A DNA stretch of 64,000 nt, taken from contig NW_024037060.1 of assembly GCF_015706575.1 (NCBI RefSeq), positions 2,728,515 through 2,792,514 on the forward strand, written 5' to 3'. The translations under genes were made by a program, and so were the position numbers. Each line of letters begins with the position of its first letter. Within the stretch, counting starts at the first letter, position 1. The notes beneath the pieces were generated by a model that saw nothing but the letters and a program-made list of their open reading frames with translations, made no database searches and was not told where the DNA came from. Shown in pieces: positions 5,001-49,826 of the stretch. Source of the DNA: Patiria miniata. Taxonomy: Eukaryota.

Positions 5001-8000
5001 CTTTCGAGGACTGAAATTGGGGACAATATTAGACTTAGTGTAAAATTCAAACAATCGAATAGTTCGAGGTTTCACTCGAGTCTGCACTGGATCGGTCTTG
5101 GTCCTCCCCTTCCCCCTCCCAAATTGGTTTTGATCTAAACTTAGAGTGATTTTCCACTTTGTTAATGAGAGTAAGTGAAGCCAAATTCGACAGAGGCCTG
5201 GTTCAAACTTACCGTCGCAAAGTGCGTCTTCCTCGTCGTCTCCGTCTCGGCAATCAGGATATCCATCACAAATTTCAGGAGTTCGAACGCAAAGGGGGAA
5301 GCCGGAAGCATCCCGGCAATGAATTCCATCCGATGGACAATCTATAAAATCGAAGTCGAGAATTACAGCGCTGCTACTATACATCAGCAGTGACAGCAAC
5401 ATCACTCCCCCCCCCCAAAAAAAACCCCCCACACACAGATAAATAAACACACGATTCCAAAGTTCATATTATAATATAGGTTTCCCGGCTATTTTAAAAC
5501 ATTTTCCACTCAAATTCACCAACTCTAACAATCAATTTTGTCCGAGAAAAAATTCTCATGCTTTTAACACAACCAATTTAGTCATTATCATTCAATTTCA
5601 AAATTTGATCACCCATTTTAGTCACCGGGTCGATAATATTCGTCATTACAGATCAAATCCGTCTAAGCTGTTGCCGAATGGCAGCATTCAGAGATCAAAT
5701 TCGTCTTATATAAATCAATTAGACGAATTTGATTTCTGAATAACACGATTCGGCGTAGACGAGACGAAATCGAATACACCGGGTCGAAAACGTGTGCTCA
5801 TTGTTTTAATTTGTTTGAACTAAATTTGAAATTGTCAGACAAAAGACGAAATTAAACATTGAAAGTGCACTAAATCGATGTTGCCGGACGAAATGAATAT
5901 AAGAATCGGTGAATTCGAACGAAAAATGTTTTCAAATAGCCGGTAAAACCTATACTCATTAGAATGAAAAGCCGATAGCATTTTTGGCAATGACGACAGA
6001 ATGATACTGAAATATAGATGTGGACATACATCAGTTCCGCACTTAAAGGTGAGGGGGGGGGGGGGCACGTGCTCCAGCGGATGTCCGTTCCCCCTGTGCC
6101 CCCTCCCTCATTTAAAATTGAACTAAAAGACATTGATGTCTTTGGCTTCAGTAACACCCCTTGAAAAATGTGTGTACATACCTCAAGGTACCCCTCCCCT
6201 ACTTCCAAATTTTCCGATTTTAACCCCGGTTAGCCACTGACTAAGATATGCGAGATATTTGTATGGAGGGCGCAAAAGACAGAGTTATACACATACATCT
6301 CTCTGGCAAGGTATTCAATAGGGGCCGGACAACTACAAAGAGAAATCAATCAAAAAGAGGGAGGGCCGTTAGGGACCCTTTTAAACTCTTCGCAAAACAC
6401 AACATCAACGAGAGGCAATATCAGCAAAACACACCATCAACAAGAGACAATACGCATCAGCAAAACACAACATCAACAAGAGACAATACGCATCATTGAA
6501 TTTAACCGTATCGGCCAACGGGGCAACAACAATTTGTTTGATTTCTTCTGCCGACCGACCTATACCTCAGGCAACCAAATATGAGAACCATATAAATAAA
6601 TAGGGACGCCCTTATGAAATACAAATACAAATTAATTTAACGATAAAAATGACAGTTCATGGTATCTTTGGAACTAGAAGCACTTACCACAACGGCTATC
6701 TGTTTCGTCTTGGTTATGCCAGCAGTCGGTAACTCCATTGCACAGCTCTTCCACTGGAATGCACAGCCTCGTGTTCTCGTGAGTAGGGCAGACAATTCCT
6801 GAGTCACAATTAGCTGCATGGCGAAAACACAAAAAAGCCCTAAACGGTACAAGAACTGGCAGGTCGACCTGTGCGAACCAACGAGCTCTTGCGAGATATG
6901 TGTATGGAGAGCTGTTTGTTGGGGGATCTGTTACATGGTACCCTCTGGAGACATGGGTACAATATGGAACAAAAGATTGTATACGGACGTCTCCACAGGG
7001 CAATTTCTATAGATGAATACGTCTCCACAAGGTACACGAAATAGATATATGGATTTTACCCCCAAACTAGGAATTTTTCAAGGTGGGTTGATCCGTCGCA
7101 AATTGAAGTATTTTATGTAAGGGATATATGTAAATCCAAATATCCATAAAGGCAAATATCCATACCTTCATCCGAATGCCTAACATCGAAAACTTGGTCC
7201 CGTGGTCAATTTGACCTCTCTTGGAAAATTACACATAACTCTGTCAAAAATTATCAGATTTGGACATTTAATGTCTCATTTTAAAGTGTAGGGCCTAAAG
7301 GCGTATCTTTCACACCATACCTATATTGTCTATTTTGGTTACACATTCTACGTCCGGCATTCCATTATATTTTGTTTGCATTTAGTAGGAAGAAAATGAA
7401 CTGTGAAAACTTACTACAGTTCTTCTCATCACTACCGTCCGGACAATCAGGAAAACCATCGCAGATGTCACTCAACAAATAGCAAACCGGGTTATCTGTG
7501 CACTTGATTAGACCAGAGTAATAAGGACACTCCCAATCTGGAAACAAAGAGAGTTAAACATGAATACCAGCGGTGTCGAAGGTGGTGATAGTGGAGATGA
7601 GTGGTGGTGAAACCTTGCAAGTTGTGAATGTGATTGTTTGAGTTGCAGGGTGACCGTACGGTCAGAGCCAAATTCTGCTAAACGCACATCAAAAATCTGT
7701 CAGATTTATCAAAAATCTGCCAAATTACCCTGAATTACTTAAAATACACTATAAACACTTAAAATCACATGCAGATTAGTATTATTGCCTTAATTAAGAT
7801 TCAAATTACATAATAAACAATCTAGTCACATAAAGATATTGTGAAATTATTGGTAAATTTCGGGCCACGTTGATCCGGCCACGACGAAGTCCGTTTCCCA
7901 GTGAACCTCAGCACCTAGACCAGCCAACCTGTCCCATTATGCAAGGGTTTGTTTGAAAGGATTGAAGCTTTTTAAAACAAATGTACACTTTTTCGTTAAA

Positions 8001-11279: not shown

Positions 11280-14200
11280 GATGGCTGGATTAGTCTGAAT
11301 ATATTATAAACGATGCGACTTGCTCAAACCAGACCGCTCTAATGATCCAAGCTGTTCCAGTATTGGCGTACCAGGCATTGGGCCCGGATTGACGATGCAA
11401 TGTTAGTGTCTACGCTGCGCTGCCGTGCCAAAGTTCATTCGGGCGGCTCATGTACCAATCAGTTTATTTAGTTTGTGACGTTAACATTAATTGTATTTTT
11501 TTTGTTAGATTCCAGAAAAAAACCCGACCCAGTTCCAGTATTTGAGTTTGAACATTGAACGGGCTACGCCTTTTTTATGTGATTGTCATTATTTAAGTCA
11601 AGTGTGCGTGTACAAAAATGTCTTGTTTTTCGCAACAGTCTTGTCGTACACAAAATACCGAGGCTGCGCTTGGAGGGGTCCACTAAACAGGAAAAAATCA
11701 AGACCACGAAAAAGGGGATTTAAAAATGTTACGATTGTGAATGTATACGTCTGTTGATCATTCAGTTAGGGTTACATGAGGGGCCATTCAAACCATAGAG
11801 CTACAGAGATTACGGTGTGCCAGTTTTTTTTAGTGTTTTTTTTTAGACACGTCACATAAGTATGATTAATGGAGCCAAAGTACCTCCTCAGCAGTGGACG
11901 GTCAATTATCGACAGTGGCGGATCTGCGGTGAGGGGTATATAGGGTTTAATCCCCGGCAAAAAAAGGTAAATCATGCAAAAAAATCACAGGAAATGTCTC
12001 TTAACCCGCAGCTAACCCGCTCTTGATCTAAAACGGGATCCGCCCCTGATCTACCAATCACGACGAGTTGTGCCTGTAATTGTCTTTGAAGCAATTCGTT
12101 TCAGTGTGTCAATTAGTCCAGCCCCACTTTAGAAATCATGTTGCCCAAGAGGTAAGCTAGTCAAGGCATTGAACACAAAATGTATAATACGCGAACCGCC
12201 GCAAGAGGGCGTTATAAATCATAAAATCTCCCCCTGAAAAAGGAAGGAAACTACCGGTCTTGTTCACGCGTGACTTCTGCCGGAAAATACAGTCTATTCT
12301 CGGTCGCATGCATAATACATACGACGACAGAGCTACCATGGAGTTGCGTTAAGTCTGGTAGCATCTTGTATGTTACTGCATGGCGGAAATTTGGTAAGGG
12401 GCTGATATGCAATGTGTAGGATGCGCGCTGCATTAGGCAAAACCATAGATAATTAGGAGAGGGACCGGTCACGTGAGAGGGTTTAACCAATAAAAGGGAA
12501 AAAAGAGTCCGATTTTCATACGCGTCTGATTTCCATATGACACCGGTACCCATTCAGAGGACTGTCAATTATCGACGTGCGCGCGCATGACACAACCATA
12601 GATATAGAATAAAAAACTTATTCTATATATAATTATGGACACAACCCCTCAAGAATCAAGATTCCAAAGACGCTGTGATTGCGGTTCGTGGACAACAGCT
12701 CGTTCCCATGGTGCTGAGCAGTACGCTTCCACCACATAAAAGGCAATCAATAGAGGGCAGCACCCCGTACATTATTCAGTTCGGATTGCGTGTCCTGAAA
12801 GCTTTCAACAGGCAATTTCTTCAGAAATGTTCATATAAATATTCAGAAATGTTGCCTTCCGTAACCCATTTCCTCCCTAGACATTATGATACATCACCAC
12901 AGAGCACAACGCAAACCTTGCAGGAGATCTTTGGCAATTGTGCGGAAAACGCTTTGTTTTAAAATATGATTACCTTTCTTGGAAAATAGATAATACTTGA
13001 AAGAAATACGTTAATAGAAGACTTGTTTGGCTGACTTCAGTCGTTTTCATATACATGTGCCTAAATTATACGCAATATTTTACAAGAAAGGTTTCTTGTT
13101 AGACTATAAACTAATGACACTTTATAGACCTAAATTGGCTTAATTGAATAATATTGTAAAGTTTATCACGCACACAAACCATGCACAAACTTAATGTGGC
13201 CTGACGTACCAATCTTAAGATCTTCAGAGGCAACTATATTCTAGTTCCATAGTTCACAATTAGAAGCCATGTTGTTATACAGAGAACAGAGGCGCAATTT
13301 CCACATCCCCCTTACAATTTCAACAATGTTTTCATTAATTTAGGCGTAAGCAAAGAACATATTAATGAAAATGTGTACAATTTTAATAGCGGTAAACATG
13401 TCGAATAGATTGAACCGGTCGTTACAACGCTCGACTGGTTACCTCTATGAAGTGTTCTCTATTGTCATATCATATATTACCGACAAATCATGGCTGCTTG
13501 TGCATTATAAAGACTGCCCCTTGAAATGTTTCCACAGTAAATAACTTTTTTTTAATAATAGCATGAAGATTCCTTTGCTGGGAATTATTTATGATTCTGA
13601 GTTGATTCTTTGTCATCAGCACTTACGGAAATAAGTTCTATCAGAGCTTTCGGTATTCATCCAGCTGCATTTTTCAATGTGGCTTTTTTGAAGAATCGTA
13701 TCATAGAAAGAAAAAATTCCTTAGAAAAAAATTAATTGAGAACCTGCTTACAAATTCTAAGTAAGTATGTTCAGAATGAACAAACCAAAAGATCATCAAA
13801 AACTTAACTGCATAAAAATCCACACATTGCATTTGCATTTAGTATCGAAAGTTTTTTAGTTAATAAGTGAAGTAGCTAGTTTTATATCCTTTATACAGCT
13901 TTTTTTTTTTAATGTAGCAAGTCAAACAACATTTTTGTCTGAGTATGCTAAATCGGTTTTGCAAAAGAAATTAACATGAGATGATAAAGTGTTTCACAAC
14001 CCTTGACAGGATTTTTGTTCTGTGTGATTTGGACCTGTTTTAAAAGTTACGCCAAATATTGTAATCAAAATCTGTTTTGTTCATTTTTCAGATCAGGTAT
14101 CTTAAGAAAAGCATTCACACACCTTCTTGGTATGTGAATGCCTTTTATTAAATACAAGATAATTTGAAAAGTGGTTCAACCTGGAATGAGATAAGATAAA

Positions 14201-21050: not shown

Positions 21051-21150
21051 CGGTATATATACGTGCTTCTAAAAAAAAAAAAAAAGGTATATATACGTGC
21101 TTCTAAAAAAAAAAAAAAAGGTATATATACGTGCTTCTAAAAAACCCAAA
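21051..21150. repeat. Tandem repeat: 3 copies of a 33-34-bp unit (ggtatatatacgtgcttctaaaaaaaaaaaaaaa).
   Basis: Read directly; the third copy diverges in the poly-A tail. Confidence 0.9.
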
Positions 21151-22177: not shown

Positions 22178-25100
22178 GCTTCACTTGCTCAGAAGGCCAT
22201 GGGTAAAGGCGTCCCAGTCGACAAGTGCTCCAAACTGCCCTTCCACGCTCTCTACCGACCCTTTAATGTACGCGCTCGCCCGCTCGATGGCTTGTGAGAC
22301 CTTCCCAGCGACAGACGTGGGCAAGTCTAGCTGGGCAGACACGTTATGTAGGTGAAGGCGGGCGAGTAGAGTCGCCACCAGTCGGACGGCCAGATCAAAG
22401 ATGTCACCGACGTCTACCGTAGCTCCTTCTCGCGACATGACTACACAATAAACAACGAATTTATATTATAATTATGATGATATAAATATCATAAAAATAA
22501 ATGATTAAGCATGGTTAATTTTTAAGGGATTTTTAAAATTAAAAACGAGCATGCCTTTTGTATCCCTTATACTTATAGAAACGTATTGATGTGTCATAAT
22601 GGGGTATCTCATATTTCAAAAAATAATAAAAAAATATAATATTAACGTTTATTAATAATAACGGTGTGGACTTCTTTTGGTATAATATAAAATGATCTGA
22701 ACAGTGTTGGTCTATATTGATGATTATGTATTAATATATACATACGTTTCACCAACTCCCTCAAAAAAGGCCCAATAATCATTATCAAAATAACTTGGAC
22801 GACTATCGAAATTGAAGACAAGGATTCACTTGGGCCGTCTTACCTGATTTGAGTTTTTCTTTGAGACGTTGTTTGCACTCCAAGATGTTGATACCTAGAA
22901 TCTCCTCCAGTTCAGACTGAAACTCCCAATGTCCGTCCTGAAAAGCGGAAAACCCAATAAGCCCTTAGATTTCAGCCAACTAAGCTGTTTAGATTATAAT
23001 TAGCCATTTTTGACAGAAAGAAAGCACACATTCATAATGGAGCCTGACAGGTATTATAACACATACCACGTTTTGTAACTCAATAAGACGCAGCGTGTCT
23101 TTGGTGACAGTTTCTGGATCCTTTACAAGAGAAGCCATGGCGTCAGTCATCAGCTCATCATCGGAGCTCCCAACAGACACTTGAGGTGGACGTCGGGGAG
23201 GGGCGGTGCCTCCTAGGGTTGGTGGGGTAGGAGGTGGGGCAAGGCTTACTCCAGATGGTAGGGGAGGGGGAGGGGCGGCGCCTCCTGGTGGGGGCGGGGG
23301 AGGGGGAGGGGCGGCGCCTCCTGGCGGGGGAGGGGGAGGAGCGGAGCTGGCCATAGTTTCTAAAAGTGGAATGGGGGAAGCGCGCATACGTGCTGAGAAA
23401 GCTTCCTCATCAAATGATGGGGGATGGGGAGATAATTCCGGAGCGTCTCGACTAAGACTTTTCGGTTGCTTGCTCTTTTTCTTTTTAAATAAGCCCCCCA
23501 CTGCATCCTTTGCTGTCTTCATTATGCCTGGGCCGCTGGACTTCGGTCGTCTTTCAGGAGCGTAAGATGCTCCAGGCAATTCTTTTTCCTTTCTTGCAGC
23601 TTTGGCCCTTTTCTGAATGACAGGATTTTCTGAACCCTGAAGTACCTTGACTGGTTCAAAGGCCCTCTCTTCATAGCGTTGTGGCTCTGGCATGGTGAGT
23701 TCAAGCACTGGTTCCGGCATAACGACCTCCCTTTCGATCATCCTATCCGGTTCCAAGACAACTTCTCTTTCTTGTACAGCAAGTTCTCTAATATCCTCAC
23801 TTAGTTCGTGACGTTGTGGCATGGCTACAGTGTCAACAAACTGGGGAGAAAGACTCCTCTGCGGCTCTGGCATGAGAAGATCTCTTTCGATCATCAAATC
23901 CGGCTCAAAGACAACTTCTTCTCTAGCACTGGTGTAAAGCATCGGCCGTGGGACATATATTTCCTGTTCCATCACATCTTCCTCCAACACTTTCGCAGTC
24001 ATGATCTCCTGCGGCTCCTGTGGTTCCGCAACCCAGCTGCGGGATACAGTTACAAGGGTGTCTGTCTTAAGTGGTTCCATTTTGGGTCTTCCCATCGGTT
24101 CCTGTCCATAGCTGCATGTGTCTCGGTCTTCCACCCATGTCACTTCATCCCTTGTCAACTCATGAGAGACTGTCATCCATCTATCCATCTCCCCTGTTGA
24201 CTCTACATTGTCTTCCTGACTGACTACCACTAACTCCTCTCCTAACTCATCAATGTCTTCAAGATATACTTCCACTGACTCGTCTAATTCAGCCGGGATA
24301 TCGCGTAGGCTGGGTTTGTGCTCAGGCTGTACCGGCTGCGCATTGATCCTTGCCATCTCCATTTGACATCTGATTAGTACAAAGAAATGCAGTTTATATA
24401 ATTAGACATTTATTTATGTATTTATTTATTCCATTTCTTTGCCCAGGGTATGCCCAAACTGTTAGAAACTGGTTTCCATTAGGGCCCTGCATACTTACCA
24501 AATTATTAAAAAATGTTAAGTAAAGTTGACCTCGTAAGGAAAATACATTGGTGAAACATACGACGAACATTAATATTTTTATACAAGTACATGTATCTCA
24601 AAAATATTAAAGAAAAGCTATATACATTGTACATATTTTAAACATGCAACTATTTGGCATAAATTACTGATCACGCGGGACGGGCGAAAACCCCACAAAA
24701 ACCTTTAGGGGGAAAAAAGGAGAAATTCTTAATCCAGCTCCAAATTAATGCCATGGCAACCAAGTATATAGTCCGTAGATCAACGCATTTTGAACTAAAT
24801 TTCACTCACTTATGGTGTGAAATAAACTCAGATATGAAAATATAACATACTTAACCAACGAAGAACACCCTTCCCAAACAAGCTGGTAAAGGGTCGACGT
24901 TAGGTTCAAATAGGCACTGGTAAGGAAACGCTTAGTATAGATCTTTATCATGCTGCCACCATTTCAGTCTTGTTCCCTGTATCCAATAAAAATACTTTTT
25001 TTTGCGTACAAAAAGGAACCAGACTATTTTTACCTTCCAGCCTCGCTTTGGTTACGTTGATTTGAATGGGAAAAATCAAAACGGACGCAACATGATAATG

Positions 25101-28100
25101 GTCTATTATGTCACTTTGTCACGTACTATTAGTTGGCATTGTATACCGTTTTGCTGTGGGGTTGCTAAATTTGATGATTGTAGCAAAAGGGTGCCGACGC
25201 TATTTCCAAAGCGCTTTAAATTATGCTGTTTCTTCTAACGATACAGACCACGTTGTGCCCATACCTATTGAGACATAAAGATGATTTATAGGAAGGGAAG
25301 AAGGTATAGATACGTACGTTTCAGCCCAATCCACAGCTTGCTGCAAAGCATCTAGGTTATCAAGCTTCGAGGTATCTGCACAATTAAACCAAAAAAATGG
25401 ATTTAGTTTGAGACCACTCAGACCCAACAAGACACTTTTGGGGTACACTAGATGCCAATAAAACCCAGGCAGCATGTTTATAGGCCCTATACGGCCACCG
25501 TAACGATGCCAATGACATCATTTGAGTTCAAAGCGAGTCGTACTCATTGTGTCAATCATGAAGAACTGAGAGTATACTTGGTTGTGAAGAAATTCAGTAT
25601 AAAACGGATTCGGTAAAACGTTTTACTCTCTTATTTTATTATTTGCAAAGAGTGACAATTTGCTTTAATCGATGAAAAATTCCATCACGCCCCAGACGTT
25701 TCTGAGTATATTTTATTCAAACTAATAGGTCGAGTTTTCACTCGAGTTTCCACTGTAGGCCTATTGACTTTTTTCCAGAGGATTCAATTCCAAAATACAG
25801 GGTTTTTTCACTGTAAATCGTGTAGTTCCTTGTTTCACTGTTTTTTTTTTTTTTTTTAAATAAGAGGTTATTGTGATTTGAAACAAAAATCAGAATTCAT
25901 ATCGGCATTGATACCTTTGTGATTCTTCTCTTAATAGAGCAAACGTAAAGCTATAGTTTACTGTTCACCTTCAATTATTAACAATAAGATTAAGTTTACG
26001 GTTGCAAACTTAAGGTAAATCTTACCTTAAGGTAAGTTAACTTACCGTAAACTTACGGTAAATCTTACCTTCAATAACTGTTGTTTCTTGAACCTCGGCG
26101 AGTTCGGGCATAGCTTTCTTGGTCTCCAAGAACGCACCGTTGACGAGCTGAAACGCCTGGTCCATGTTGCGTTTGACTCGGGCACAAAACTTTGAAAATG
26201 AGTAGGCCACCTGAAAAAGGTAAATGATAGAAAAATAATGACTTCGTCACTTCTCTTCTCCGAAAACGCCCAAAATATTGCAGTAAATGGGTTCTTATTT
26301 TGTTTCTAGCTAGGTGTATAGATGTTACAGGATGCATGGTGGTATACTTAGCGGATGGAAACGTGGTTTGAAATTGCTTTGTCCGTGCTTAATAGTTTTG
26401 CCCCCGCAAAAATAACGTAAGTATTGAATTTATAGTGTTTTGAATACATGATTGATTGAAGTTTAACCAAGTTTGATGTTATTATAGATTTAAGGTATTG
26501 GAATTTGGAATCTCTTTCTTAAAATGTTCATGTCCACCATGCAAACTTACAGGTTTCAGTCATTCTTAAAATTTCAATAAATATTTTTTTGCACATTATG
26601 AAACATGGTAGAAATTTTACCAAATACATTGCAGAGTGTAGTGAAAGTTTAAAAAAAAAAAAAGTTTTCCCAACACCCAATGGAAATTTTAAATGCAATT
26701 CTAATGATTTAAAACTGTAAACAACTTTGTACCGTTAGGGTAATAGGCTGGGCGTAGGAGAGAGTCTCTTTGGCCAACCCGTACGCTTCCTCGAAGTACT
26801 TCTCTGCTGACTTGAAGGAGAATGAATCGGCGGCCACTTTGGCGGTTTTCAGAAGGCTGTGAACTCGCTTCAAAGGTGACAACTGGAGAGGAAAACGTTC
26901 ACCGTTCAGAAGATTCAACATAGTTTAGTCTGTCTGCTTTCAATTTCTCAAGAGAGAATCTAGGTTTTTCCGACTCCAACCTTGTTCAGCAAAGTAATGT
27001 TCCAAGAGCTGGGTGGTCGGGAACTTTCTCAAGTCGCTTAATGAAAGAAAAACAAATAATAAAAAACATTCTGGTTGGACTAGACATGCAGAGCCCATGC
27101 TTGTTAGGTTAAGTCTCAAACAATTAAACCATGATTAATTAACCTTCAGTCTCTGACGACGGGCAGAGCATACTGCCCGAAACGTTGGGTTTTCCCCGGT
27201 TCTTTTCAGAACCTCACAAACTCACCAAAGAGATATGTCACATGGTGCTACCTTTAATTGTTATATTTTTGCTATCGTCACCATGCAGTTATATAATTAC
27301 CAATGAGTTAGATAGACCTACAGAATTTGTTTGTAAGGTGTTTGTCCGACCTCACCTGTTCCGTTTCCGCCATTAGTTCCTCCCACTTGAGCGAGAGGAG
27401 ATGGTCGACATCTTCAGCATCGAGAAGTTTCTCTAGACTCAGAACTGTGGCAGGTCTCTGACCTTCTGTAAGCTGTTTCTGCTCAACCTGCAGGGAGCGG
27501 AAACGCAGGGAACGCAGAACGATACATTCAATCTTTCTTTTATCAAGAAGAAGTTTTTGTTACGGTCAGCGGAACAGAGTTCCAGCTGCAACATGACAAG
27601 TTAAAAAAATAATAACCACAGACAATTGAGTTTTACCTCATCTCTTTCCTCCACAGCGATGAAGCTCGTGAAGGGAGTGACAATCGAGTACTGGATGCTC
27701 AGCTCCACGATGCGCGTTTTCAGCTCGTTCTTCTGCGATTCGTGCTCTGTGCGATCAGCGTGGAGGGCGCCCTCTTCCCAATTCCTGATGACGGCGCGCG
27801 CGGCCAACTGGTGAAGAATCTGTGATTGCAACGGGATGGATTGCTTCATGTATTGCGTCTTAAACAATCCGTGGTCAACGATGACTTCTTGTGCAAGTAC
27901 TTCCTTTATCAAATCGTATAAGCTTGATTTGTCTCATTAAATAGGAACATGGTTCTCGGGGAACACAGTTCGTTTTATCACAGTTTCTTGCTATACATTG
28001 TTTCAGAGATCGAGAGGCGCCGAAATAAAGTTAGGCCCTATCTTTAAATAATTAATGACTTTACGTAAACATTTTGTAAGAAATCGGGTTTTAACTGTCT

Positions 28101-37104: not shown

Positions 37105-37153
<49 letters not shown>

Positions 37154-40100
37154 GGGTGGGTGAGGCGGGGGTTGATTTAGTAGCACACCCCTGGTCAAAA
37201 AGTGGGGTATACCCCCCACTCCATCCTGCCCCCGGATTTACACCCCTGTCAATATACAACAGCACTGCCCTCTATTACTCCGCCTTATCTTAACGCATAA
37301 AGTCTATACTTTTTAACTAATACCTCGACACGGTGGCTTTCACCAGTTTCTCCACCTTAACGAACTCCGGGTGATCAGGTGCCAGACAGTCCAGGTAGCA
37401 TTGCAATGCACGGTATCTGGACTGACTGGTGCTGCGTTGGGACCAGTCTGTCGCTTCACTCACCGCCACAATATCGTGAATAAGCTAGATACATAATACA
37501 AAATTGCAAATAATAACCACATAATCTCATAGGTGTCAATTCGTTGGTAGTTGTGAAATTTTATACATTTTTTTTTTCACCTAAGAGATTTCAGACATTT
37601 TTGGGGTTCAACGATGCTTTGAGATTAGTTGTTACAATTATTAGGTATTGCGTTTTGCTATAATGCATCGCAATGGTAGAATTATACTGATTCGTCTTGT
37701 AATAAAACACCGACTCATTTTGTGTAATAACCATTTGTCTAAAAAATGATTAGATTAAATCATTACCAGTTTTCATTTTGTGCTTCTCTGCTAAAAAATG
37801 TTTCAAATATCTACCTAACCTTATTCTTTTCTCCTCTGTGTTGTCAATTTTGGATTAGTTATTCGACTTTTTTCTCTTTTTTTTTGCTTTGTGTTTTGTG
37901 TTTTTTTTCAAAATGGCCTAATAGTAGGTTAGGCTCGTGGCTATACTTTAAAAAATAATTTATTAAAAATAAATTATGATATTACCAAATCGACTATTAA
38001 AACAAACATTTTGAAAAGCAAGGTTAATATAAATTATTACACATATTTTTGATCTGCTTCGTATTTGTCCCACCTGGCACAATTCCTGCTTGCCGGCTAG
38101 AGTGCGCTTGTTGTTCACGGGTGCCACGTGGTGTAATTTATGCGGTATCAGTCGGTAGAACTCGTCGTTCAGCTTATCGAGATCCGGTCCGTAGCCGTCG
38201 CAATCAGCGTCTAACATCTTCCTGATCTGGAGTAATATACCCTCCGCCTTTTCCACCTGAAAAGAACCCCCAAAAATATTTAAAATGAAAATAAAATCCT
38301 CATAGGAATTTGAAAATATTATCTAAGAAATACTGCAACAGCATGTAGTTAAAGTGAATCGGCGTACATTGATCATTTTAGTCAGGATTCGACTTTAACT
38401 AGCCACCCAGGTTTATTACAGATTCTGAACTAGCCGGGGCATTTTTGCTAGCCCGCATGTTTTCCTTTTATAGAGTGTCTCATAAACAACAATGTGCATA
38501 CATCTAAAACGTGTTTATGCTGAGGCAACTTTGTCAGTGTTTTTAATAAACAGATAATAGTTTAACCCTGAACAGTTAATATAATTAGAAACTAGTTCAT
38601 GCAGGTTTGCTTTCTGAATTGAATTATTTATTTCTGCTTGTCCTTTCATCTTTGCCGTAGCTCAATAATCTTTGACTCGCCAGCCGGGCTAGTACCTAGT
38701 AAGGAACAGCTTGGCTAGCCCGCCGCTGTTTTGACCGCGGCATTAGCGGGCTACCGCTAAAGTCGAACCCTGTAAAATTTAGCACGTTTTGAGGGTTGTG
38801 CAAAAAATTCAATATCGAAAACTATATTTAGAGTTTCACTATTGCAGCTGTGTCTATTATCCCTAGGTTGACTGCATTTCCTGAATGTCTGGCTATTTCC
38901 GGTTAACGCTGTATCTATTGAAACTGCCCGACACTCATGCATGCCGACACTGTCTCTATCCAGGTAGCGGTATGCATGGTTTTAATTGGGACATCAGAAT
39001 GTCTACGAGTGTGCGAGGCTTGAACAAAAACTTGATAACAAAACTGCGAGATGAACATATTTACGCCACGTGAAATATTTAATAACCCGCAAGTAGCAAG
39101 GAAATTCTGTGCCGCCTATACGTCTCTCGTACCTGCAACATTTCCAACTGTTCCTATAGTTTTTTACACTCAGACAACAGTATACTCACTGAAGATTACA
39201 TTTTGTGTTGCATGTGCACTGTTACAAGAAGTCTATTCCTGCAAACTCAGGTATATGTTGAAGATTAGCGGATATTTTTTTACAAGAAACTATCAAGAGT
39301 TTTGAGTTTCCATCAGGAGAATATTTGGGTTATTAATGCACAGCAATTTTCACTGGCACTCTCAATGAACGTTAAAGTTATGGGCATCGGGTAATACGAA
39401 ACAAATTCACGACATAATAAATTTCTTTTCAGTTTGTCTGCATTTTCTTCTAAGACATGCCTGAAAGCACAAAGCAGTTGCCTGTACACTGCTTCATGTG
39501 ACATGGCCCTATATTATAAGACCTACTTTTCCAATGCCTATTTTCCGGTAGGGAACTGATAAGATTTCTCGGAGTTCGCCATTCGCTTCCCGCCAGAGAT
39601 ACTCAACAAGCCTCGTCACTTCGTCTGAGATAGCTGGCCCGTCTGTTAGTCCAGTTTCCATCGCTTGCTGAAAGTTTAAAAAAAAAGAGGACATGACCTG
39701 AATCTACATTAGTCTCTTGTATGGCAGTCAAAAAAATCCGTTGGCAAAAAAAAAAGGTTCTAGATTGAAGTTCTTTTCGCTAAAAACCTTCACCTTACTT
39801 TCAGACCTTTTGTAGGTGAAAATGGAAATAAGAGGTTCAAATTGATTACAGGTCAAATCCAAACAACTAAATAGCAGGGATTATAATTGAAGCCGGGATT
39901 ATGGATCACAGGCCTCTTTTTCTGTTTTATTTTACAAAACATCAAGTGTTCCCCCCCTTTTTAGAGGCCACCACTGCGTATAAAAACGTTTGTATAGTCG
40001 GTAACGAATTTTGCAGTTACTCCACAATTCAGATTTTAGTAGTCGTCCGTTCACTATTCCGCGTATGTTTTTGTGTGCTTCTTTTGTCCTTTTTGCGACA

Positions 40101-49485: not shown

Positions 49486-49826
49486 CTATTGTTATACCTC
49501 TGTCTGGAATACTGTATTTTCATTGGCTTAAAACGATCACGTGTTAAGTTTATAAAAAGTCACGGCACACTCCCTGTGGGATATCACACACAGAGAGTGT
49601 GCTATGACTTTGTGCGTACGGTACGTACGGTGTGAAACGCTTGCATTGTTGGTACCCACGCTATTTTCATGAGTTGGAGCAGCGAACTAGCAGACGAGCA
49701 GCAGTTTCAAGCACGGTACGCGACATGCATGTGTGTTGACGTTCGATTGTCATGATAGTTGCTGTTTACTGATGTTTGTTTTCGTGTTTTCAAAGTCCAA
49801 AGAATCCAAGACAGAGGTATAACAAA
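49486..49826. repeat. Segment of about 340 bp bounded by a 17-bp inverted repeat (gttatacctctgtctgg … ccaagacagaggtataac) and containing two internal hairpins. It could be a MITE or a structured-RNA locus.
   Basis: The inverted terminal sequences are read directly. The internal palindromes are agtcacggcacactccctgtgggatatcacacacagagagtgtgctatgact and ttgttgact…agtcaacaa. Confidence 0.45.

Follow-up and report, generated by a model that had tools for sequence, protein, structure and literature searches.

Stem-loops that regulate a 5' splice site (5'ss) are known from tau exon 10 and from TSL2 of SMN2. The 5'ss of murine leukaemia virus (MLV) is attenuated by a stem-loop (PMC2794156), tandem donors lying 2-12 nucleotides (nt) apart form a recognised class (PMC2878309, PMC1779574), and in PAH intron 11 the binding of U1 at +17/+20 is stimulatory (PMC5933811). 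Hairpins can also arise by mutation, as template-switch mutations create or perfect hairpins with perfect arms (PMC5453318, PMC8794818) and quasi-palindrome mutagenesis is documented (PMC7202029). Here we describe a repeat block at the 5' end of an intron in a PARP4-like gene of Patiria miniata (contig NW_024037060.1, positions 2,728,515 to 2,792,514), which an earlier note had presented as a palindromic array of decoy donors adjacent to a genuine one. This 64-kb stretch of DNA is referred to as the window, the gene that bears the array lies on its minus strand, and all coordinates are those of the window. The feature is real and non-random, and its earlier description is broadly right, though over-interpreted. 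The block falls into known kinds, both as a set of cryptic tandem donors and as a local repeat of quasi-palindromic form, and judging from its sequence it is probably a lineage-specific, neutral product of duplication and template switching that created cryptic donors.

Every GT was scored by its Watson-Crick pairs to the 5' end of the U1 small nuclear RNA (snRNA), AUACUUACCUG, and sites with at least 7 pairs were regarded as strong. The string quoted in the earlier note, GGTAAGATTTACCGTAAGTTTACGGTAAGTTAACTTACCTTAAGGTAAGATTTACCTTAAG, is found exactly on the minus strand, from 26069 down to 26009 and within the interval reported for it. The transcribed strand here carries four GTAAG sites with at least 7 U1 pairs, their G residues lying at 26068, 26056, 26045 and 26025. 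The genuine 5'ss (26061..26071, AAG/GTAAGATT, G26068; a slash marks the junction throughout) makes 8 U1 pairs with a duplex energy of -9.5 kcal/mol. The three extra sites, named by their distance from it, are +12 (26049..26059, ACC/GTAAGTTT, G26056; 7 pairs, -5.7 kcal/mol), +23 (26038..26048, ACG/GTAAGTTA, G26045; 7 pairs, -9.3 kcal/mol) and +43 (26018..26028, AAG/GTAAGATT, G26025; 8 pairs, -9.5 kcal/mol), the last of which is identical to the genuine donor over 11 nt. A fifth GTAAG, at 26032, is present on the opposite strand only. As such, the claim of "four to five" U1-binding sites stands for four of them, the real donor and the three extras, and falls for the fifth. While the minus strand holds 214 sites with at least 7 U1 pairs in 64 kb, nowhere else, on either strand, do four fall within 50 nt. 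The GTAAG motif itself occurs 53 times per 64 kb on the minus strand, giving ~0.04 expected in 44 nt by a Poisson estimate, and no comparable donor cluster was found at the ~20 other donors of the PARP4-like gene.

The anatomy of the block is that of a local repeat. It covers ~86 nt (26071-25986), running from 3 nt inside the exon into the 5' part of the intron, and consists of two units. The first, c1 (26029..26071, minus strand; AAG/GTAAG...CTTACCTT), is a 43-nt quasi-palindrome that holds the genuine donor together with the +12 and +23 sites, and the second, c2 (25986..26028, minus strand), is a diverged tandem copy of c1 that holds the +43 site and two of the predicted hairpins described below (hairpins 2 and 3). 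Thus AAGGTAAGATTTACCGTAAGTTT (26071-26049) recurs 43 nt downstream as AAGGTAAGATTTACCTTAAGTTT (26028-26006), with 22/23 positions identical (96%). The alignment of c1 with c2 scored 23 and that of c1 with its own reverse complement scored 24, in each case with 0/2000 shuffles as good; c2 is a far poorer palindrome than c1. Both units are composed of ~11-nt GGTAAGTTTAC-like subunits, and Tandem Repeats Finder reported a period-11 array at 26039-26069 (2.7 copies, score 46, transcribed-strand consensus TACGGTAAGTT). With its 11-nt periodicity and its two copies of a 43-nt unit, the block has the head-to-tail arrangement of a short tandem repeat or minisatellite, and perfect inverted arms of 10, 12 and 8+8 nt occur amid imperfect surroundings. 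Of the earlier suggestions, that of a microsatellite-like variant comes nearest to the repeat anatomy (the period-11 array and the doubled 43-nt unit), but the repeat is not common within the 64-kb window, where BLAST and two mismatch-tolerant motif searches returned self-matches only and no further copies. Furthermore, the 23-nt unit had 0 matches among 241 million metagenome records.

The block is flanked by a 9-nt direct repeat, ATTGAAGGT, on the minus strand. Its first copy (26067..26075) spans the real exon/intron junction, and its second (25967..25975) forms a pseudo-junction, AAG/GTGAAC, at the 3' bound of the block. These are the only two copies in the window and they lie exactly 100 nt apart; a direct repeat of at least 9 nt arises in 78/2000 (3.9%) shuffles of the region. 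The pair may mark an older duplication of ~100 nt, or an insertion. Aligned with each other, the segments 26075-25976 and 25975-25876 outscore shuffles, most of the score coming from the 9-mer itself, and a 100-nt tandem duplication is suggestive only.

We propose that replication errors at a quasi-palindrome generated the block, with slipped-strand duplication and short template switches making direct as well as inverted copies of the sequence next to the donor. Since the copied sequence is a consensus 5'ss, its direct copies would become decoy donors, that is, the strong U1-complementary cryptic sites at +12, +23 and +43, and its inverted copies would become mimics of the U1 5' end that pair with donor-like sites, with no selection needed for either. 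Three hairpins would form in the pre-mRNA after ~40 nt of the intron have emerged, while U1 recruited co-transcriptionally would mostly use the first site. Use of the cryptic sites would be minor, the products of +23 and +43 would be cleared by nonsense-mediated decay (NMD), and the block would have no selected function. The appearance of decoys set in a hairpin would thus follow from what was copied, and is not evidence of design.

The assignment of the productive donor depends on the gene model. Along the minus strand, Pfam matches occur in the order PARP_reg, PARP catalytic, VIT and vWA, ~15 exons within 40416-27637 are collinear with proteins of sea urchins and amphioxus named PARP4 or PARP4-like (residues ~208-1208), and the conserved exons match PARP4-named proteins from fish, one ascidian and one oyster. 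The PARP4 label is supported by the domain order, and the earlier assignment of the gene to PARP4 is borne out by this order together with the exon collinearity. The array follows a PARP4-like coding exon of 142 nt (26210..26069, minus strand; acceptor cag/GTGGCC, donor ATTGAAG/GTAAGA) and not, as had been stated, an exon at 26095..26213. The upstream exon ends in phase 0 (…ACG/GTACAA), so the 142-nt exon enters in phase 0 and leaves in phase 1, encoding VAYSFSKFCARVKRNMDQAFQLVNGAFLETKKAMPELAEVQETTVIE plus G, the first base of a split codon. Around the donor the minus strand reads CAGTTATTGAAG/GTAAGATTTACCGTAAGTTTACGGTAAGTTAACTTACCTTAAGGTAAGATTTACCTTAAGTTTGCAACCGTAAACTTAATCTTATTGTTAATAATTGAAGGTGAACAG, where 26069 is the last exon base and G26068 the first base of the intron. 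This intron (25376..26068, 693 nt, 34% GC) carries the array at its 5' end and closes with the acceptor ...TTTTTTTGGTTTAATTGTGCAG/AT at 25376/25375, and the next coding exon on the minus strand (25318..25375, 58 nt) sets the frame test for the candidate donors.

Splicing from 26069/26068 to 25375 gives the open frame ...TTVIE-D-TSKLDNLDALQQAVDWAE (also written ...TTVIE-D-TSKLDNL...), and among the four candidate donors only the first site and the +12 site keep the reading frame. Use of +12 is predicted to be in frame and without a stop, with GKIY inserted and D changed to H (D becomes GKIYH). Use of +23 is predicted to shift the frame and meet a stop in the next exon, and that of +43 to add a 43-nt extension holding an in-frame TAA. 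The GT at +12, with GTAAGT, has the 2-12 nt spacing of TassDB-type tandem donors, while +23 and +43 lie outside that class. Frame continuity and an intron of the same position and phase in sea urchins indicate that 26069/26068 is the productive donor, upholding the earlier choice of the first GTAAG as the genuine site. A donor further downstream, with the array as coding sequence, is ruled out, since reading on past the exon meets a TAA in frame after 31-33 nt of intron. A GAG/GTTCAA donor (exon end 26094, near the 26095 of the earlier note) is also ruled out, as it puts the next exon out of frame (worked by hand).

The PARP4-like genes of Diadema and Lytechinus have a homologous exon with the same start and a phase-1 end (G/GTAAGA and G/GTAAAG), and the split codon in Diadema also encodes Asp (G/AT, phase 1), matching the gene in the window. 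No GTAAG array or palindrome was found behind the same-position donor in either sea urchin, and in amphioxus there is no intron there, a single exon spanning the region. The positions equivalent to 26069/26068 are 31641 and 18591 in the two sea-urchin loci (L001 and L002), and the amphioxus exon lies at 24806-25174 of its locus (L003). In an exhaustive representative search the closest proteins showed ~39-47% identity over the exons around the array, with upstream-exon stretches of up to ~62%, and among the collections searched the closest relatives of the C-terminal part are sea-urchin PARP4-like proteins with ~39% identity. The absence of the array, and with it the stem, from two same-position introns is thus an absence in comparators only ~39% identical in protein. 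Peptides of the surrounding exons gave no matches in a word-indexed protein search, and a back-translated exon scan of metagenome contigs gave none either.

Spliced together, three minus-strand exons (26885-25318) give a C-terminal PARP4-like peptide with a Pfam 14-3-3 match (E = 7e-8; 32.7 bits, slightly below the cut-off of 33.2). The alignment, tried as a means of telling the +0 from the +12 junction, stops short of the exon junction. Amphioxus PARP4 (P0100, locus L003) also carries PF00244, and from these matches invertebrate PARP4 proteins seem to have a 14-3-3-like helical segment.

The 111 nt at 26085-25975 fold at -34.3 kcal/mol, compared with -17.3 +/- 3.4 kcal/mol for dinucleotide shuffles (z = -4.99, 0/200 as good). 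The minimum free energy (MFE) structure consists of three adjacent hairpins, of which hairpin 1 is bulged, and the "perfect hairpin" previously described is not what the RNA is predicted to form. Hairpin 1 (26071-26029) has 18 base pairs (bp), a 3-nt UAA bulge and an AGUU loop, at -19.1 kcal/mol. Hairpin 2 (26031-26009) is CUUAAGGUAA-GAU-UUACCUUAAG, with perfect 10-bp arms (100% complementary) and -9.1 kcal/mol, and hairpin 3 (26012-25991) is UAAGUUUGC-AACC-GUAAACUUA, with 9 bp and -7.2 kcal/mol. The 3' arm of hairpin 3, ACCGTAAACTTA, is furthermore the perfect complement of TAAGTTTACGGT at 26055-26044 (12 nt, 100%). In the MFE structure of hairpin 1 the genuine-donor sequence AAGGUAAG pairs with its inverted copy, CUUACCUU (26029..26036, minus strand), which overlaps ACUUACCU at 26037-26030, a string identical to nt 3-10 of the 5' end of metazoan U1 snRNA. 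The sequence ACTTACCT has a single occurrence on the window's minus strand.

When 111 to 601 nt of sequence are folded, the mean predicted probability of being unpaired, P(unpaired), over -3 to +6 is 0.04-0.10 at the genuine donor and 0.02-0.12 at +23, compared with ~0.35-0.40 for +12 and ~0.33-0.36 for +43. When 5' prefixes were folded, the genuine donor was ~45% open until +36 and closed once +40 was transcribed. Given that the genuine donor is buried more than two of the three decoys, the fold is not selective for decoys, and what it is predicted to hide, if anything, is the real site. The predicted fold thus speaks against the idea that the hairpin sequesters the decoys, as the most buried sites are the genuine donor and +23, with +12 and +43 more open.

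The fold is unusual but not unique in the window, as the array locus ranks 4th most structured after GC correction in a sliding 110-nt scan (z = -4.7). The strongest predicted fold is an inverted repeat at 17004-17100/17149-17245, with 97-nt arms that are 96% complementary and 48 nt apart; it has the look of a miniature inverted-repeat transposable element (MITE) and lies amid low-density lipoprotein (LDL)-receptor class A exons, in the next gene downstream from PARP4. Unrelated hairpin-forming inverted repeats are also present at 2574-2652, 5673-5754, 14092-14160 and 49556-49611, with arms of 23-37 nt that are 75-87% complementary. With several comparably strong and unrelated inverted repeats in the window, hairpin-forming repeats are ordinary in this genome, occurring every several kb. 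A mirtron or precursor microRNA, which would be ~55-70 nt with a stem of at least ~22 bp, is ruled out by the size of the largest hairpin (43 nt, 18 bp). A search of Rfam at E up to 10 returned only sub-threshold chance matches to bacterial small RNAs, at no more than 17 bits against gathering thresholds of at least 38.

The burial of the genuine donor is also what would be expected if the stem were a selected structural cis-element, in which the U1 mimic CUUACCUU would close an 18-bp stem on the donor, and U1 access, set by folding kinetics, helicases or RNA-binding proteins, would tune productive against unproductive PARP4 (+23, +43 or retention). The predictions do pair the donor in a stable local stem, its P(unpaired) being 0.03-0.11 once at least 40 nt of intron are present and ~0.45 before, with hairpin 1 at -19.1 kcal/mol against -9.5 kcal/mol for the U1:5'ss duplex, and the fold holds up whether 111 or as many as 601 nt of context are included; attenuation of a 5'ss by a stem-loop also has a precedent in MLV (PMC2794156), as well as in tau exon 10 and SMN2 TSL2. 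However, both sea-urchin introns at this position lack the array, c2 has already begun to decay compared with c1, and copying of the donor sequence explains the whole anatomy, and we regard such an element as unlikely. A cis kinetic switch, in which the U1 mimic ACUUACCU would compete with U1 while the +23 and +43 decoys, identical or nearly identical to the donor, captured U1 unproductively, would set how much PARP4 is spliced productively and how much goes to NMD or retention, and would have been born in one template-switch step; we regard this as highly improbable. The extra sites might, by analogy, act as an intronic U1-binding enhancer that promotes definition of the 142-nt exon, or as a telescripting element that suppresses premature cleavage at intronic poly(A) signals. 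All three lie within 43 nt of the donor with 7-8 Watson-Crick pairs, PAH intron 11 offers a precedent (PMC5933811), and hexamers resembling polyadenylation signals (AATAAA/ATTAAA) occur about 352, 400 and 429 nt into the 693-nt intron. Yet such hexamers are expected by chance at 34% GC, and the natural donor, which is near consensus (8 pairs) and already supplies a U1 site, requires no assistance. Predicted stems bury two of the four sites, the gene does without extra sites of this kind at its ~20 other donors, and neither sea urchin has the array at the same position, leaving a U1-binding role rather improbable. About equally doubtful is a genuine alternative isoform, in which use of +12 would add GKIY and replace D by H within the 14-3-3-like region near the C-terminus. 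This site is in frame, has no stop and an intronic GTAAGT, and fits the recognised tandem-donor class (PMC2878309, PMC1779574), but it has a poor exon side (ACC) and a weaker U1 duplex (-5.7 kcal/mol) than any of the other three, and the sea-urchin and amphioxus homologues have no insertion here.

Two further accounts concern the origin of the block. It could be the remnant or excision footprint of a mobile element, with ~91 nt of palindromic DNA inserted at the junction between 9-bp target-site duplications of ATTGAAGGT, an account that draws on the exact 9-nt direct repeat, with its two copies 100 nt apart and no others in the window, on the palindromic content, and on MITE-like inverted repeats elsewhere in the window. 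However, the inverted repeats are internal, with the 3' end, ...TTGTTAATA, having no partner at the 5' end on our reading of the sequence, no second, dispersed copy was found in the window or the metagenome collection, and the weak alignment of the sequence past the second ATTGAAGGT with the first block fits a local duplication better; we consider a mobile element quite unlikely. Palindromes are a known class of artefact, and a fold-back chimera or other assembly or sequencing error would produce one, but a block of only ~90 nt that is imperfect, has diverged copies and lies inside an intact in-frame gene model makes an artefact hardly credible. Neutral local copying is supported by the 22/23 repeat, the shuffle tests, the period-11 array, the perfect arms and the flanking ATTGAAGGT, as well as by sea urchins that have no array, the lack of recurrence, the other donors without a cluster, and a fold that is not decoy-specific. 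Several points weigh against it. The fold is strong (z = -4.99), and the predicted pairing partner of the genuine donor, a perfect U1 mimic of 8 nt (26036-26029), lies just 32 nt from it. Stems at such a distance can reportedly form in vivo, as is said of Eperon-type experiments. The perfect arms could reflect maintenance and not recent origin, the absence of the array in ~39%-identical comparators says little about its own clade, and the proposed history of duplication and template switching is drawn from extant sequence.

Other simple repeats occur in the window. A perfect 34-nt tandem repeat (21052-21144, 2.7 copies, GGTATATATACGTGCTTCT followed by A15) lies between the PARP4-like gene and the downstream gene, and 36-nt GC-rich tandem repeats at 23195-23344 encode a repeated PPPPPPGGAAPPPP within a 457-amino-acid open reading frame (22989-24362), for which there was no Pfam match and no exact protein record. 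Between PARP4-like coding exons, (GT)15 is directly followed by a G-rich run of ~35 nt (37107-37171).

If neutral copying is the true origin of the block, it calls for caution, as a copied donor would instantly mimic an engineered decoy array in a hairpin. Given that copying alone can yield such an array, motif content alone is not evidence of regulation. The locus would then illustrate a way in which errors of local replication can give rise to cryptic donors and to stems that occlude a 5'ss, both of which supply alternative splicing with raw material. Were the regulatory reading true, nature would here offer a clean example of donor choice gated by a U1 mimic encoded in cis; the support for that reading is thermodynamic prediction only.

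Compared with described systems, the block most resembles template-switch hairpins (Loytynoja & Goldman 2017, PMC5453318; Monttinen & Loytynoja 2022, PMC8794818), in that short perfect arms stand near one another within imperfect sequence, a single adjacent sequence is present in direct as well as inverted copies, and a stable RNA hairpin would result without the need for selection. It differs from them in that the putative template is a 5'ss, so the copies carry splicing signals, and in that the event is a putative one, read from present-day sequence. Like the GYNGYN and TassDB tandem donors (PMC1779574, PMC2878309), it has an in-frame second GT with a good intronic consensus at +12, whereas here four repeat-generated sites lie within predicted hairpins, those after the first are candidate donors, and two of them would be unproductive. 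As with tau exon 10, SMN2 TSL2 and the MLV 5'ss (PMC2794156), the donor is predicted to be paired from -3 to +5 with a partner shortly downstream; while those stems are conserved and experimentally validated, the one over this donor is lineage-specific and predicted, with a partner that repeats the donor literally in inverted form. Finally, PAH intron 11 (PMC5933811) and U1 telescripting share with this intron U1-complementary sequence within tens of nt downstream of a donor, but where PAH has a weak exon and a single degenerate motif, the PARP4-like intron combines a strong donor with putative sites that are perfect copies.

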